From: Octopus vulgaris
Taxonomy: Eukaryota
NCBI GenBank assembly: GCA_951406725.2
Contig: OX597817.1
Coordinates: 127,720,001 to 127,784,000 of the forward strand
Length of the DNA: 64,000 bases
Direction: 5' to 3'
Below are positions 22,236 through 55,649 of this stretch, one piece after another. The notes beneath the pieces are model-generated. The model saw only the letters and a program-made list of their open reading frames with translations. It was not told where the DNA came from and searched no databases. Within the stretch, counting starts at the first letter, position 1. Each line of letters begins with the position of its first letter. The position numbers and the translations under genes were made by a program.

Positions 22236-24518
22236 TGACAGATCCCGTCTTTTTCCCTTTCTTTTCGTTTCCTTCTCCGTATTTTATTCTCATTATTTCG
22301 AACTAATACAGACACAGAGAGCCTTGAAGAAAGGAAGAGGAGGAAAAAAAAATGTTCGGAGATAAAACTATCAGCAAAAAAAATATAGACGAATATAGAT
22401 CTGCTAGTCTTAAGAAGCGGCGCTATGAGCAATGCTTACATGTAGTGAACCCTAAACTGTCAGATCCATCTCCTAATATAAGAATGGATGCTCGTCATGC
22501 TTCAAGGTCAACAAATCAAACAATAAACCGCATTGGTCATTGCGCGGATTACAAAAGACCACGTACCCGAAAATTGAACCAAATTCTGATTGAAAAATCA
22601 GCTACTGGATCAAATCTTCCCAACACACAGGAGCTAGACGTACCCCACAACCGGAATATTCCAACAGATGGCCATCCATGCTCATCACCAAATAATCAAA
22701 AGAAAAAGAAGGAGAAATGGTCTAGGGAAGATAATAAAGAAGTTCTTGAGGCCTTCTACCATGCCATATATTTCCCCACAGATAAGTCTAGCACTGTACA
22801 AGCATACTTAAACTGGAGACAGAAACACCCTAAAGTAAGACCCTACATAGACAGTAACAAACTTGCCAACGTCAGAAGAAACATTATAAAAAAAAATTAC
22901 TGACTGAAGTAGAGATTGATCAGGTTAGCCAAGCAATATCGGATAAAATGAACGAAGCTGCAGCTAGAGAAGATAATACAGAGGAAATAATTATAGACCA
23001 GCCCAGGGCTGATAAAAACGAAGAGAGGATTGAAAGAGTTAGTATAAGTGATAGGCAAAGTGAAATACTCCCTGAACCAATCATAAACACTAAGACAGAT
23101 GAGCATCAAATAGATAAAGAAAGTCACACAAATATTGACCCAACAGAACTACATGAGCTAAAAAATCAAATCATGATTGAATGGCTGAAAATTAAAGAAA
23201 CCAGATGGATGAACGTGATACACTTCCTAAAATCCGCAACTCTAACCAAAACATGAAAATAATTGGTAAAATCCGGCTTGCACTTAAGGATATAATTTCA
23301 GCTAATGATGTTGATATCACAAACCTCAACCACCTATACTATGCATCCGCGAAAATCTCAACGATCCTATGTGGTGTAAAGATTAGAAAACGGCAACATT
23401 CCCACAAAAAGCCTTCTTGGCAAGAGCGTCTGCAACAACAAATTAAAATATTTAGATCTGACATTGGATATTTGAAAAACCTTAAGGCAAACAAGACTAC
23501 CAAACCTACAAAAACCCAAACATTACTGAAAAAATACAATATGAAAACTATACTTGATATTGATGCCAGCATAGAAACCATCAAACAAAAGGTATCTGCC
23601 AAAGCTGCCCGCATAGCGAGGTATGAAAAGCGTGTTAGATTTTTCAAGGACAACAACATGTTCAAAAATAACACCAAGAATTTTTACAGGAAGATAGGAA
23701 AAACAGCGTTTACAGCAAGGTCTGTACCATCAAAAGAAGAAGTGCAGGGATTTTGGAATAAAATCTGGGCAGAAGAAAAAACACACAACGAAAAGGCCCC
23801 CTGGATTGACAGAATATCTACAGAACTGGACCCCTTAGAAGAGCAAAAGTGGGAGGGTGTCAAGGTAGAAGATATAAGATCTGCTCTCAGGAGGTCAAGC
23901 AAATGGAAGTCTCCAGGAAAGGATAAAATTCCTAACTTCTGGCTGAATGCCTTCCCAGAGAGCCATGAACTGCTAACAGAACTGTACAATGATGTTTTGC
24001 AACACCCTAGTAGGATGCCTCCTTGGCTAGTTAATGGGTTAACATTCCTGCTTCCAAAAAGTGAAGAAACAAATGAACCAAAAAACTATAGACCCATAAC
24101 CTGCTTAACAACTATGTACAAAACACTAACATCTGTCCTGACGGAATATACCTATAGTTTTTTAACAGACAGCAGCATATTCCCTAATAAACAGAAAGGA
24201 TGTAAACGTGGATCCTACGGCTGTAAAGACCAACTACTCATCAATAAGATGATCCTAGAAGATTGTCACAAACGACACAAAAACTTATCAATAGCCTGGA
24301 TAGACTATAAAAAGGCTTTTGATAGCCTACCACATAGCTGGATTAGGAAATGCCTGGAAATGTATAAGATAGCACCTACTCTGCGAAACTTCTTGACTGT
24401 AAGTATGAGATCATAGAGAACCACACTAACTCTGAACAGTGACAATGAATCCCTAAATGCTGGTGATGTAAAAATTTCGTGTGGCATTTTCCAGGGTGAC
24501 TCACTGTCACCACTCCTA
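22236..24518 (+). mobile_element. R4/Dong-clade RLE LINE, 5' half (5' UTR, N-terminal domain, RT to motif B), 3'-truncated pseudogene
   Basis: Frameshifted ORFs 22352-22903, 22948-23256, 23205-24416: KWSREDN...WRQKHP...KLANVRRNIIKKN (R4-type N-terminus), WKSPGKDKIPNFW, KNYRPITCL, QKGCKRGSYGCKDQLLI, WIDYKKAFDSLPHSWI, then after an in-frame stop GIFQGDSLSPLL. Begins just after taataacaataataa. Confidence 0.92.
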
Positions 24519-24934: not shown

Positions 24935-25085
24935 TATTTTACGTTCTGAGTGCAAATTCCGCCGAGGTTAACTTCACCTTTCCCCCTTTCGAGGTAGATA
25001 ACAAGAGTACCAGTTGGACACTGGGCCGATGTAATCGACTTAACTCCTTCCTCGAAATTGCTGCCCTTGTAGCAAACTTTGAAAC
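24935..25085 (+). mobile_element. SINE family B, partial
   Basis: tacgttctgagtgcaaattccgccgagg...gagtaccagttggacactgggccgatgtaatcgact. Confidence 0.7.
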
Positions 25086-27174: not shown

Positions 27175-27524
27175 CAGAAAAACATGTTTATTTAAAAACA
27201 AGCACAAGTTTTTCAAATTTAGGTGCATTTTCAACACATTTTCATCCTCTTTAGTTATATATAATGTATTATAAAAAAGTGAGAAAGCCTGACAAGATAC
27301 ATACAATACTAGTGAAAATCCCAAATAATGATTCTCGTTCAATAAGTTTCATATGTAGAATCATTGCATCACAATTTTAAACTCAAGCGGTAGAAAGTAG
27401 ACGATGTGAATTGCAATGAAGCTTAAACCACAACTCTGAATTTTAGGAAAACTCGAACAGCATTTATAGAAAACTCAGTCTGCAGACGACATGGTGAATT
27501 ACCCATTTCTTGTCCATTTGTAAA

Positions 27525-27747
27525 TGAGGATCGAAACTGAGAAATTCACTGTGACTTTACGTTCACTTTACATTCTGATTTAAAATTTTCTATCACCATT
27601 CCGAGGTCAATAAAGTGAATATTACCGAAGTATGATCGCAATCAGCTGCGTGGTTAAGACGTTCACTCGTGCTACTAGCCAGATAATTTGTGATTAATAT
27701 GCTGTAGTGGGAAATTGTAACTTTACTATTGACTTTATTCTCAGTGC
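27525..27747 (+). repeat. Source copy of a 223-bp local inverted duplication
   Basis: Reads as the reverse complement of 28676-28898; no mismatch seen by eye. Confidence 0.92.
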
Positions 27748-27787
27748 CATCTGATAAGCTTCATACGAACTGACAACTCTCAGATAT

Positions 27788-27988
27788 ATGCCGGGCAAAA
27801 TGCTTAAAGGTATTTCGTCTGCCATTACGTTCTGAGTTCAAATTCCGTCAAGGCTGACTTTGCCTTTCATCCATTCTGGGTCGATAAATTAAGTACTAGT
27901 TACGCACTGAGATCGTTGTAGTCGACTTAATCCCTTTGTCTGTCCTTGTTTGGCTCCTATGTATTTAGCCCATTGTGGGCAATAAAGA
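27788..27988 (+). mobile_element. SINE family B, 5'-truncated
   Basis: gccgggcaaaatgctta...gagttcaaattccg...gactttgcctttcatcc...gtcgataaattaagtac. Confidence 0.8.
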
Positions 27989-28404
27989 TATATATATATA
28001 TAGTAAATGCGAAAACTAATTTCTGTGTGTCAGTGTGACACACTTTGACTCCCCTCTCTCACTATTCAACGACACTTCTTCGTGTTATTGTGAGAGTAAT
28101 ACCAAGCATAGAGACGGTGAGTGTGGTGGCGAACACATAGAGAGAGAGGGAGAGAGAGAGAAAGAGAGAGAAAGAGAGAGAGAGTGGGTATGTGAAAGAA
28201 AGATGGAGATGCTGTACAACGTTCCTGGACAGAAATTCCTGTGGCGAGCATACTGAATCAGTAACTGAACACTATCATTTCTCTTTTATTTTTGCTTTCT
28301 TTAATACATACATATATGTGTGTGTATGTGCGTGTGCGTACGTATATACATATATACACATTCACACACGCAATATATATACATACATACATATATATAT
28401 TTAT

Positions 28405-28478
<74 letters not shown>

Positions 28479-28616
28479 CGGAGATGTACTCGCATAGCAA
28501 GTAATTTGATCTGAGATCGTGTGCTGAAACGAAAACAATTGCAGCGTGGGAGGTGTTTATAAGCCATTTAAGAAACACACAAAAGCCGTTCGATTCACTC
28601 CAACATTTAAGTTTAA

Positions 28617-28666
28617 TTTGTCAAAATATTTTCGTCGCTAAAATCCGCGACCTGTTCACTGACAAA
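28617..28666 (-). ncRNA. Minimal type I hammerhead ribozyme-like motif, G3-C8 variant (left arm)
   Basis: Reverse complement of 28927-28976. Confidence 0.65.
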
Positions 28667-28926
28667 GTCCGTGCTGCACTGAGAATAAAGTCAATAGTAA
28701 AGTTACAATTTCCCACTACAGCATATTAATCACAAATTATCTGGCTAGTAGCACGAGTGAACGTCTTAACCACGCAGCTGATTGCGATCATACTTCGGTA
28801 ATATTCACTTTATTGACCTCGGAATGGTGATAGAAAATTTTAAATCAGAATGTAAAGTGAACGTAAAGTCACAGTGAATTTCTCAGTTTCGATCCTCACT
28901 GACAAAGTCCGAGATGCAGCACGGAC

Positions 28927-28976
28927 TTTGTCAGTGAACAGGTCGCGGATTTTAGCGACGAAAATATTTTGACAAA
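28927..28976 (+). ncRNA. Minimal type I hammerhead ribozyme-like motif, G3-C8 variant (right arm)
   Basis: TTTGTCA (stem I) GTGAACA (core) G GTCGC-ggatttta-GCGAC (stem II) GAA AATATT (palindromic stem III) T TGACAAA (stem I'). Confidence 0.65.
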
Positions 28977-29289
28977 TTAAACTTAAATGTTGGAGTGAAT
29001 CGAACGGCTTTTGTGTGTTTCTTAAATGGCTTATAAACACCTCCCACGCTGCAATTATATATATATATATAAACCACTTTAACTGAAATACAGTTTCCCC
29101 AAAATAAAAATATCTAATATATTAAATGTAAATATCAGTGTGCCAGTGTGTCACACTTTTCAACTTTACTCCTAGAGGCAGTAGCCCAGCATATCATGCC
29201 ATTTTGGAACCGAGGGAAATCCGGACCTGCGATCCGAAATTTTGGATTCCTATGTCTTCATTACTGCGAATGTTTTTGGCGATTTGTTT

Positions 29290-29434: not shown

Positions 29435-29566
29435 ATCGAGAAGGTTGAGATCTGGGTTGTTACTGGGTTAAATGTTGGCCCTCGCAAAAATTGGCACTTT
29501 CTCACCAAAGAAAGCCAGTATTGCTTCTGACCTGCATGGTGCAGAATCCTGGATAAGCACCACATT

Positions 29567-29754
29567 CTTTTCTACTCTAGGCACAAGACTCACGATTTTA
29601 GCCCCAGTAGATCGACCCGAGTATGCAACTGGTACTTAATTTCTCGACCCCAAAAGAATGAAAGGCAAAGTCGACCACGGCGGAATTTGAACTGAGACGA
29701 AATGCCGCTAAGCATTTCGCCCGACGTGCTAATGTTTCTGTCAGCTCGCCGCCT
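29567..29754 (-). mobile_element. SINE family B with 13-bp target-site duplication
   Basis: TSD TAAGCACCACATT at 29554-29566 and 29755-29767; inserted in the DD37D-like transposase. Confidence 0.9.
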
Positions 29755-30576
29755 TAAGCACCACATTTTTAAGCCCAATCATTTGTTTCATCCGAAGTAA
29801 CAGAGAGTTCTTCATGATATTCTGACAAACCTTTCTGCCGATCTTCAAGCCAGATTCAATGAAGTGTGGATTCATGAAAATTCCATCACTCGCCACGGCA
29901 CCAACTATCATCGCAGATGCGGGATTCTTAGTCTCAAACACAGGAGGGATGTCAGAAGGGTTGTATGCAATCACTCGAGAATTTATGCGATTCACCTCAG
30001 CGTCTACTCTGAACTTCTCATCCACAAGCACGACAGTTTTTCCTGTACCTTGCTTGATGTATAACAGAGGCTTTGAGCATCTCTCGGCTCTTATTGCTTT
30101 GGCTTTGGCTGATAAATGGGACGGAGTCGTCGAACAAAACTATGCATGCCAAGATTACTGTTCACAACTTTGGACACCGTCGAAAGGGAAACATTGCGTT
30201 TCTGAGCAAGAGAGGACACACTTGCAAAAAAGGACACATTTGTAAAAAGGACAGATTGCGTTTCTTTACAATTGGATTCAATTAAGCGTTTCAGGCCAGC
30301 GAGAAACTTTGGATTGTCGCAGCTCGTGACCAATCCATCTCAGCCGGTATTCCTTTATCCTTGTGCTCATTCGCTTTTCGTCAGCCATTTGGTACATGAT
30401 ATCATTGGAAACATGGTCGTTATAGAATATCTGATAGGCTAAATAATATAAATAAATCCTGGAGTCAATGTCAATAACTTTTACCCTCTACGTAAAAATA
30501 AATGATGGCCTTACGTTAGAGATCAATATGTTTCGAAATATGCGAGAAAAACAAGGGTTAGTATTTTAATTCTTTC

Positions 30577-36054: not shown

Positions 36055-37661
36055 TTTTTTTTTCTTCTTTCAAATTTTCTTCCATTTCTTGCCGAGTGTC
36101 TTCCCGACTCCTAGGGCAAAGAAACTCATAGTGTATATTGGTAGGCCATTAAACCAAACTCAGTAGTTCGTTCATTTTTTTTTTTTTTTTAAGTTAAATT
36201 AAAATACATGAGCAGCAACAGTTCGCACATCGACAATGCTCTTCTCAATACGTGTGATGTACCAGTTAAGACAATCTTTTGCACTTCTTGCAGGGATGGT
36301 AAGCCAGGGACCATTCTCATATAATTTTCGGTTCCCTTCTTGATCATTCCTAGTGCTCCTACGATCACTGGTATTGTAACCGCCTTGAGATGCCACATTT
36401 TCTCAATTTCAATGAGTAGGTCTTTATATTTTCTGAGCTTGTCAAACTCTTTCGCTGAGCTATTATGATCACAGGGGATGCTCATGTCGATCAATAAGCA
36501 AACTTTATTGTTTTGGTCTTTCACAACAATATCTGGTTTATTGGCCTTGATGGTTCGGTCTGTATGTACTGGAAAGTCCCACAGAATGGTTACATTTTCT
36601 CCTTCAGTTACAGCCTCAGGGTGGTGATTATACCACTTGTCGGCAGTTTTGATATTGTAATGCCGACTTATTAGCCAGTGGAGATATTGGCCAACTCTGT
36701 CAAGTCTTAATTTATACTCCACTGGTGCTAAGACTTTACATCCAGAGATTAGGTGGTCCACTGTTTCAATCCTGTCGTTGCAGAATCGGCATTTTGGGTC
36801 TGCTCCATTTTTCATCACATTGGCCTGGTAGTTCCGGGTTAATAGGCTTTGGTCTTGAGCAGCCAGGATGAAACCTTCACTCTCTGCTTTTAGCCCTGAG
36901 CTCCGCAGCCACTGATGGGTTTGCTTCTGGTCAACATCAGCTTGTTTGCTGCGGGTCACATATTTGCCGTGCAGAGGTTTCTCCTCCCACCTATCAGCCA
37001 ATTGCTCGTGCGCTTTTTTCATTGCCATCATTTTCACCTTCTTTGCAACAATAGTTGCCGTACTTCCCTCGGGTTGTTCAGTTTGGGTATCCTGCACGAG
37101 ATCAATAGCAAATTTTTTGCTTTCCTTGATGATAGAATGAAGCTTCTTTCGTCTCTCGTGATTTTCCACGAGCTTTAGCATCCAGTCATTCGATATTTCG
37201 AGATATTTGGCCAGTCCAATTGTGGTTGTTTTGTAAGCTAGTTCAAATTGGATCAGGCCTCGACCTCCTTGGGCTCTGTGAAGGTAAAGGCGATCTACGT
37301 CTGCCTTTGGGTGGTGCATCCTATTACAACTCAGCAGCTTGCGTATTTTTCTATCTATATTCTTTACTTCACTCATATTCCAGTTCAACACATTGTAGCT
37401 ATAAGTAACAAATGGAACTGCTAAGGAATTTATAGCTAACACCTTGTTACGTGCATTTAGTTCAGATTTCAGGACTGCACGAACTCTCCTATAACATTCC
37501 TTCCTGATTTTCTCATTCATGCTTGCATGCTGAATACCAGAGCCTTCATTTATCCCTAAATATTTGTATGTTTGTTCCTGCTCAAGCTCTCTTATGACTG
37601 TGTCAACATCTAACACGACTGAATTTGTGGTCTTCACTTTCCCTTTCTGGAAAGTGGCCTT
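36054..37661 (-). mobile_element. R4/Dong-clade LINE, 5'-truncated 3' part inserted in (TAA)n
   Basis: Contains the open 482-aa ORF and 3' UTR; (TTA)n at 36001-36053 and from 37711. Confidence 0.93.
36189..37637 (-). CDS. C-terminal part of R4/Dong ORF: RT thumb, CCHC zinc knuckle, restriction-like endonuclease
   Basis: YKYLGI, RLYLHRAQGGRGL, AAQDQSL, CRFCNDRIETVDHLISGC (CCHC), ILWD...NKPDIVVKD...LIDMSIP...KLRKYKDL (PD-D/ExK RLE), PVIVGALG. Confidence 0.9.
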   Translation of the reverse strand: MKTTNSVVLDVDTVIRELEQEQTYKYLGINEGSGIQHASMNEKIRKECYRRVRAVLKSELNARNKVLAINSLAVPFVTYSYNVLNWNMSEVKNIDRKIRKLLSCNRMHHPKADVDRLYLHRAQGGRGLIQFELAYKTTTIGLAKYLEISNDWMLKLVENHERRKKLHSIIKESKKFAIDLVQDTQTEQPEGSTATIVAKKVKMMAMKKAHEQLADRWEEKPLHGKYVTRSKQADVDQKQTHQWLRSSGLKAESEGFILAAQDQSLLTRNYQANVMKNGADPKCRFCNDRIETVDHLISGCKVLAPVEYKLRLDRVGQYLHWLISRHYNIKTADKWYNHHPEAVTEGENVTILWDFPVHTDRTIKANKPDIVVKDQNNKVCLLIDMSIPCDHNSSAKEFDKLRKYKDLLIEIEKMWHLKAVTIPVIVGALGMIKKGTENYMRMVPGLPSLQEVQKIVLTGTSHVLRRALSMCELLLLMYFNLT

Positions 37662-37723
37662 TCTGGACTTTCCTTTCTTTTTCCTTTTTCACTTTCCTTT
37701 TTCACTTTCCATTATTATTATTA

Positions 37724-44860: not shown

Positions 44861-45759
44861 ATACATCGCTCGCATTTTTCGTCATAAAAATTATATAAAC
44901 ATACATAAAAATATATAAAAATATATAAAATCTTCTTGGGACATAACACAGAAAGCATGTTCTATCCGTTTTCTTTAGGGGACCAAAAACGTAACAGAAA
45001 TTTAGTCACATGTGGGCATGATCCGAAAAGCTCTGTCCTTGTATTTAGACATGTGGTAGGGTCTAAGCTGCTTTTCCAGATAAGCCATCTCTCCATGTCG
45101 CATAAACCGGACCTTCCGCTGCCGTTAGTATAGGGCTTACATCTGGCCAAAATCTTCCATTGTATGTTATAATCGACACCTTTATCTCTTAAAGACCAAA
45201 TATGATTGGATAATTGTGTCGCTTTTCTTTTGTTCCAGTGCCTAAAGCTCAAAGTGTGGTTATTGAACCTGGCCTTGAAATTACCCTCTGTCAGGCCCAC
45301 GTATTTCTTCGTCGAAACGGTGTCTTTAGTGGTTATAGAGTTTACGGTAGCTTCATATATGATGGTCTTGGACATGCAAGCTCCATTTAGCGGGCACAAT
45401 TCTTTATTCCTGCATGAACAGCTGTTTTCTTCTTGTGTTTTTTGTATGTTATGATTGATTATGTTTTTAAAATTGGTAGTTGAACTAAAACTAATTTTTA
45501 AATTGTGTCTATTGAAGAGTTTCCTATAAGCATGGTTAACTGGAAAATGTCTATCTATGAGTGCTAGGAAATATTTACCTATATTGAAGGCCACCTCGGG
45601 TGAGTAAGGGGGCGTAAACCAGATGAACTTCCTATTTCTATTATTCCTTTTCCTTATTGTTGCTTTCTGTGTTATGTCCCAAGAAGATTTTATATTTTTT
45701 TTTATATATTTTTATGTATTTTTATATAATTTTTATGACGAAAAATTCGAGCGATGTAT
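44861..45759 (-). mobile_element. Penelope-like element 3' fragment with an inverted terminal duplication (44861-44957 / 45661-45759)
   Basis: GIY-YIG ORF bracketed by ~97-bp inverted repeats; left end runs into (TA)n. Confidence 0.85.
44962..45660 (-). CDS. Penelope-like GIY-YIG endonuclease C-terminal fragment
   Basis: RKFIWFTPPYS..NIGKYFLALIDRHFP, CSCRNKELCPLNGAC, IIYEATV...YVGLTEGNFKARFNNH, LSNHIW, CDMER, LNTRTELFGSCPH. Confidence 0.88.
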   Translation of the reverse strand, partial: TIRKRNNRNRKFIWFTPPYSPEVAFNIGKYFLALIDRHFPVNHAYRKLFNRHNLKISFSSTTNFKNIINHNIQKTQEENSCSCRNKELCPLNGACMSKTIIYEATVNSITTKDTVSTKKYVGLTEGNFKARFNNHTLSFRHWNKRKATQLSNHIWSLRDKGVDYNIQWKILARCKPYTNGSGRSGLCDMERWLIWKSSLDPTTCLNTRTELFGSCPHVTKFLLRFWSPKENG

Positions 45760-54668: not shown

Positions 54669-55470
54669 CATAATAATAATAATAATAAGGTGAGGGACTG
54701 AAACGAACCAATTGGTTTTCGCGTTAGCTGTTCATCGTTTGAATAACACCGGTTAGTAGACGGTGTCAGGTCTAATAGTTCCTGAGAGAAAAGATTATTT
54801 GTAAGGGGGGTAAGTAGTTCTGGATTATATATATAAGGGAGGTAAGTAGTTCAGGAATTAGAAATGTGAGTGATGTAGAAAGTTAATAGGGTTTAGTGGT
54901 TTAAATTGAAGAGTTAGTGGTGTTCTGTATTGAGTTGTGTGTTCACATTTAGTTGGGGGAGAAATTTGTTGATGGAAAATGACTCTTTATTCAACCTTTG
55001 TTGCATTGTGGTGTTCTGTGAGCATTGGTAAAAGGAAAATATTTGGAAGTTGGGATTACGATTCCTGGCATATCTGTCTATGTGTTCACTCACCTTTAAC
55101 TGTCTGTATTGTGGGTGGTGGTTTTCTCTTTGTGAATGGTGATTCTTTGACGGAGCGAAATTCCTGTTTGTCCAATATAGAGTTTACCGCATCTTATGTA
55201 TATCATGACATACATTACATTTGCCGAGGCGCAGGTGAAATTTGATTTGATCTTAAATATTTCTCCTTGTTTGAATTGGAATTCTGAACCCTCCAGAAGG
55301 TGGGGGCATGTTCCACAGTTAGAATGTCCACATTTTGTCACTTTTGGTTCAGTAGTTAGTGGGTAAAATCTAGCGCTGGTTAGTATTCTTTTCAGTGACT
55401 TCGGTTTCTTTTTGCTTTTTATAATTTTATATGAGCTTAAAACTTCGTTCCTTGTTTTGTCTGCTGTGAG
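54477..55470 (-). mobile_element. Penelope-like element (Neptune-type Cys-rich linker + GIY-YIG) 3' fragment with terminal repeat
   Basis: [11 protein letters not shown]...[13 protein letters not shown]...[35 protein letters not shown]; downstream hammerhead-like motif; both ends in (TA)n. Confidence 0.85.
54701..54740 (-). ncRNA. Minimal hammerhead-like motif with TGAACA (C8) core
   Basis: Minus strand aaac-GATGAACA-GC-taac-GC-GAA-AACCAATTGGTT (palindrome)-C-gttt, located 3' of the GIY-YIG ORF. Confidence 0.5.
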
Positions 55471-55478
55471 GATATATA

Positions 55479-55528
<50 letters not shown>

Positions 55529-55596
55529 CATACGTACACACACATATACATACACGCATATATATTTATATATATACACACACATATATGTATGTA

Positions 55597-55638
<42 letters not shown>

Positions 55639-55649
55639 CACTAAGTTTT

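Follow-up and report, generated by a model that had tools for sequence, protein, structure and literature searches.

Copied flanking DNA at the joint of a two-armed Penelope-like element insertion in Octopus vulgaris

Results

The window analysed here is a stretch of 64,000 nt of the Octopus vulgaris genome (GCA_951406725.2, contig OX597817.1, positions 127,720,001-127,784,000, forward strand). A (TA)n tract within it holds an insertion of 580 bp in total (Table 1), whose inverted arms (28537-28678 and 28915-29056) are 100% complementary over 142 bp. The spacer between the arms is host DNA: 27525-27747 is the exact reverse complement of 28676-28898 over 223 bp (0 mismatches on exact extension, rechecked; BLAST E 1.6e-115 for donor against copy within the window). 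The extension confirms the inverted copy proposed in an initial annotation, and the GCA and TCA overlaps and the identity of the 16-mers 28656-28671 and 28896-28911 are present as described there. Neither the spacer nor the arms differ from their sources (100% identity), and the lack of any mismatch in the 223-bp copy and the 142-bp arms agrees with the proposal that the event is young. A genome-wide search with 27400-27800 as query matched the donor and the spacer copy only. Elsewhere the window contains GIY-YIG fragments that we take to belong to other PLE-like families (44962-45711 and 55096-55647, minus strand), fragments that are presumably RT remnants of non-LTR elements (23196-24416, plus; 36189-37688, minus) and one that presumably resembles a Tc1/mariner transposase (29741-30139, minus). 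Near the donor lie copies, 72-85% alike, of a short repeat that is very abundant (27790-27990, 24939-25049 and 29564-29757).

Table 1. Features of the donor and the insertion, in window coordinates.
Feature	Position	Strand	Remarks
9/11 match to 3' end of right-arm snap-back	27517-27527	+	from a site scan
Donor, host DNA, 36% GC	27525-27747	+	730-952 bp left of the insertion; unique besides the copy
(TA)n-rich target tract, left side	28373-28476		target-site duplication indistinguishable
Tailed arm, PLE pLTR positions 1-202 from the tailed end	28477-28678	-	element sense is minus
60-nt tail, part of the tailed arm	28477-28536		
Inverted exact donor copy	28676-28898	-	GCA shared with left arm, TCA with 16-mer
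16-nt snap-back of right-arm end	28896-28911	+	16-bp stem, 10-nt loop, -18.0 kcal/mol
Tail-less arm, PLE positions 205-61	28912-29056	+	starts at the family's main stop site (putative transcription start)
(TA)n target tract, right side	29057-29071		

The true start of the right arm is 28912, and the trinucleotide aga, previously listed apart from the arms, is element positions 203-205. The 16-mer had been ascribed to a return jump from donor to left arm; a better explanation is that the right-arm end snapped back on itself. L158, a second locus, snaps back in an identical register; 16 ends altogether match one of the six similar junction motifs scanned. While the left arm is 3 nt short of position 205, the right-arm end is complete with an extra base, G28911, which is the complement of an extra C after position 205 and probably derives from a 5' cap. 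The left junction has GCA microhomology alone. At the junction of donor and 16-mer, an imperfect 9/11 match (27517-27527) extends beyond the 3-nt TCA; it is the best of 75 sites with the same 3-nt end within 1 kb and ties with 4 other sites within 2 kb. Template switches guided by microhomology, as originally suggested, account for the junctions.

The 202 bp from 28477 onwards are matched at 100% in at least 40 copies (40 scored of 1,389 first-look candidates). Longer copies run on into a microsatellite-rich 3' region and then into an ORF with reverse transcriptase (RT) and C-terminal GIY-YIG motifs, for instance a 654-aa open stretch with YVDD and VYQIKC...YIGET in L068. The nearest Atlas clusters, at 0.96-0.97, carry RVT_1, HTH_animal and GIY-YIG; a Pfam scan of the ORF gave no match at E 0.01. 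By eye, KCQEGAC stands between the motifs GIY and YIG and CQSNCAVC upstream, and the CCHH motif, the two cysteines between GIY and YIG and the CX2-5CxxC linker of the Neptune/Nematis type, as described in excerpts of PMC8557442, are all present. Judged by its sequence, the carrier is a young EN+ Penelope-like element (PLE) that targets (TA)n. The longer copies thus bear out the PLE origin already assumed, and the name foldback element gives way to that of a two-armed PLE insertion. Fixed TIRs around a family-wide internal region, as in a foldback DNA transposon or MITE, were not found; the arms are retroelement sequence of about 30 to 3,300 bp, and the spacer is not common to the family. The idea that the spacer regularly belongs to the interior of such a family, for which the inverted-arm shape speaks and nothing more, therefore has practically no probability, as the genome search finds it twice only and the family runs instead into its 3' region and RT-GIY-YIG ORF. 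Since the donor is unique and local, the spacer is neither a chance match nor a family-wide internal part.

One copy, L114, is a partial tandem in which an upstream copy is joined directly to the 5' part of the ORF. Here, the frame opens at an ATG within the pLTR and continues for 130 codons until it meets an in-frame stop in that copy. Rfam found no hammerhead among 45 matches at E<=1 in L114:4400-6400, a search that minimal variants could escape. Self-cleavage was considered for the stop at position 205; as no ribozyme was found by Rfam, a capped start is preferred.

Exact patterns counted 226 tailed and 176 tail-less ends genome-wide. We parsed 165 loci with a tail-less end in 10-kb stretches, the window locus included, leaving aside L169 (pattern not found), L228 (paired with an unrelated older copy) and L063, L068, L070, L071 and L072, which are without the exact tail-less pattern; L124 and L145 have two tail-less ends each, of which one was parsed. 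By our pairing rule, 45 of the 165 are without a tailed partner. Two-armed copies make up 119/165, and 96 of these are young pairs, i.e. with at least 96% identity on both arms. The outer ends are fixed, the tailed one at position 1 and the tail-less one at about 59, and a tail of 58-60 nt is found at one end only. The inner arm ends cluster over positions 198-206, where 36 of the left ends and 44 of the right ends of the 96 pairs fall. A C follows position 205 in 32 of the 38 ends stopping there, on tailed and tail-less arms alike, and in 4/7 unpartnered tail-less copies. This extra C is likely a reverse-transcribed 5' cap, which would place the transcription start at position 205; for L1 junctions, the available part of PMC11702581 mentions an additional base derived from the cap.

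The relation of the two arms bears on how they were made. The tail-less arm reaches more than 20 nt past the tailed arm in 26/96 young pairs and the tailed arm more than 20 nt past the tail-less one in 13/96, whereas 57/96 agree within 20 nt. Simple self-copying is insufficient to produce the 26 tail-less overhangs, although asymmetric arms could alternatively stem from later central deletions. Both arms carry the same allele at the diagnostic sites 1017/1053 in 6/6 loci listed with the minor allele, and the arms share alleles, 11 of them locus-private (35,643 sites, 89 loci). Allele sharing shows one template molecule, which dual priming and snap-back copying would fit equally well. Arm asymmetry, the loop-less TCTC/GAGA joints of L183 and L221 and in vitro data favour two cDNAs joined head to head: according to the sections available of PMC11167929, PLE protein cuts and extends both strands in vitro and uses two RNA start sites that bound the tail.

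Spacers of at least 60 bp that are not element sequence occur in 4 of the 119 two-armed copies; a 60-bp gap in L136 was set aside as diverged element sequence. Two spacers derive from the copy's own flank, inverted from the left at the window locus and direct from the right at L111. As flanks were searched over about 2-6.5 kb per side, and less beside long copies, 2/119 is a lower bound. Among the other inverted-arm copies surveyed, a spacer matching the copy's own flank was found at L111 alone within the flank lengths searched. The L111 spacer (482 bp, L111:4710-5191, G000:C3:166171109-166171590 region) has its donor 1.4-1.7 kb to the right, contains an internal 160-bp restart at the 4-nt microhomology AATA, and its near-identical matches are all local. 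Neither of its junctions with the element shows microhomology, and one has 2 extra bases. For the L078 spacer, a dispersed old repeat, no donor appeared among the best 40 of 154 candidates (best other match 83%), and a genome search found no second copy of the 77 bp that lie with a TA tract between the arms of L201 (G000:C12:89300163-89300239). In five copies picked by their tailed end, no flank-derived piece was found at the inner junction. Since the 223-bp copy exists once, and locally, the suggested transduction of host sequence is not borne out.

The flank copy at the joint is real in the assembly, and such copies are uncommon. Inverted repeats trouble assemblies, as excerpts of PMC8557442 point out, and an assembly or long-read chimera would fit the sequencing data inasmuch as contigs of X1, X2 and X18 and about 3% of the X24 raw reads yielded no junction-spanning record among the 24 pieces listed, while one unbroken 554-bp contig of the public run X1 crosses the donor with no differences. 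Contigs drop variants, however, and the X1 individual may lack this insertion, whose youth would allow it to be polymorphic. Moreover, the joint carries marks typical of the family that are not chimera products, namely the extra C, the snap-back register shared with L158 and the tail-less end, and L111 is a second locus with the same kind of event. We therefore consider a chimera very improbable.

Palindromes are break-prone. A two-armed copy might thus have formed first and its centre broken later, to be patched from a nearby DNA template. With 100% identity throughout, either order in time would fit, and near-identical local duplications occur in 21/165 loci, 19 of them in flanks (an enrichment is not claimed). 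However, 4/6 inspected flank duplications resemble, by eye, copies of other mobile families. A later break would usually erode ends, whereas here the right arm is intact to its end, with extra C and snap-back, and just 3 nt are missing from the left arm. Later repair appears improbable on these grounds.

Discussion

Our preferred reading, held with modest confidence, is that host repair synthesis copied unique flanking DNA, in inverted orientation, into the joint as the two fresh cDNA ends of a PLE insertion were brought together. The GIY-YIG domain would first cut both strands of the (TA)n tract. Reverse transcription of one capped pLTR RNA would next be primed by both ends, one using the tailed start site and the other the tail-less one, and both cDNAs would run off the RNA 5' end at position 205. 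The right cDNA, ending in the cap-derived C, would fold back and copy 16 nt of itself. The left cDNA, 3 nt short, may have used GCA to pair with its own strand where resection had exposed it 730 bp upstream, and then been extended by at least 220 nt. Finally, the extended ends would anneal at the 9/11 match and be filled in. The reverse order, in which the right end invades the donor at the 9/11 site and copies toward the break, would give the same sequence. In polymerase theta repair, as outlined in parts of PMC7165422, inverted repeats arise via the own strand and direct repeats via the opposite resected end. The polarity of our flank-derived cases, left-inverted and right-direct, matches repair synthesis on resected ends, a rule resting on n=2. 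Both outcomes would be open to the end of the tailed arm, with its own resected strand as template in one case and the opposite resected end in the other.

Several observations sit uneasily with repair synthesis. Copying 223 bp at 730 bp is far past the length and distance norms of polymerase theta and past the typical distance for L1, L111 lacks microhomology at its element junctions and would be better explained by RT jumping or fragment capture, and no donor was found for the long spacers of L078 and L201. The element's own RT might instead have left the RNA end for single-stranded DNA close by, or for a transcript of the locality, and made the 223-bp copy there, an explanation that we hold to be less likely but a serious competitor. 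Length and distance beyond polymerase theta norms as well as the L111 junctions without microhomology, one with 2 extra bases, are in its favour. Precedents come from the accessible portions of two reports, in which L1 ORF2p extends DNA ends on DNA templates (PMC11702581) and R2 cDNA snaps back onto nearby target DNA (PMC11371274). On the other hand, DNA-templated jumping by a PLE RT was not found in the open-access literature, and the microhomology at both junctions of the window locus, together with the polarity of both cases, fits repair synthesis.

Penelope-like tandem or inverted insertions such as Poseidon_Ac, as far as portrayed in excerpts of PMC11167929, PMC8557442 and PMC3846280, share with the present family a pLTR that holds the ORF start, an inverted 5'-truncated copy, a tail at one end, an AT-rich target and two RT start sites. 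In contrast, their reported tail is 30-40 nt instead of 58-60 nt, no hammerhead was found here by Rfam, and a flank copy at the inverted joint is not described in those excerpts. Host DNA captured between pLTRs is mentioned in PMC3846280, where head-to-head palindromes are attributed to an antisense template that is copied by self-priming; in the present family, both arms carry the extra C, which speaks for capped sense RNA instead.

Templated insertions of L1 number 22 instances against 3,598 insertions according to a figure legend in 10.1101/2024.08.27.596794; their templates are typically shorter than 250 bp and lie no more than 15 bp from the site. Like these insertions and twin priming, as partly covered in that report and in PMC11702581, the present events are rare, copy local genomic DNA into the insertion and involve two cDNAs joined by microhomology. 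The templates used here, however, lie not within 15 bp but 730 bp away (223 bp) and, at L111, 1.4-1.7 kb away (482 bp), and the carrier is a PLE of the germline whose second start site is fixed. The 5' snap-back junctions of R2/PRINT (sections of PMC11371274) are similar in that the cDNA 3' end primes on itself, especially after full-length synthesis, and less often on nearby target. Unlike the natural, dispersed insertions with two cDNA ends studied here, R2 is one-ended and site-specific for rDNA, and was followed in cultured cells. Polymerase theta, in the part of PMC7165422 available, shows the same inverted and direct repeat classes, iterative restarts and short microhomologies. Its templated insertions typically measure 3-30 bp and usually come from within 30 bp of the break, a range that includes the 16-mer and excludes the 223-mer.

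The window locus is likely a repair scar like those known from L1 and R2, in a host family that is new for such scars; open-access texts yielded no report of flank capture or cap marks at PLE joints. The 223-bp duplication has no recognised function and has not spread. What makes the family valuable is rather its set of more than 100 young, almost identical joints, which combine a mark resembling a cap with two fixed start sites and, now and then, captured flank, since the late steps of PLE insertion were left unvalidated in the parts of PMC11167929 at hand. Such joints make dual priming versus self-priming testable from sequence and the existing in vitro assay. In a broader scheme, which we consider unlikely, one capped RNA would be copied off both cut target strands to give head-to-head insertions, and the PLE RT would then jump to resected flank as far as 1.7 kb off; about 2% of two-armed insertions would thereby duplicate hundreds of host bases, and the last step of PLE integration could be read from the joints.

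Further rearrangements were seen next to copies of the family. At L200 (G000:C12:62620400-62630399), a tail-less copy is bracketed by two direct copies of host DNA, each about 656 bp long and 97.9% identical to the other, an arrangement resembling a very long target duplication. L140 (G000:C6:116889700-116899699) has a tandem duplication with a 588-bp period that ends at the TA tract and adjoins a left arm with heavy gapping. Near-identical inverted or palindromic pieces are present in the same (TA)n tracts at L074, L077, L148 and L163, the last of which resembles, by eye, another PLE RT fragment. TA tracts seem to collect several families.
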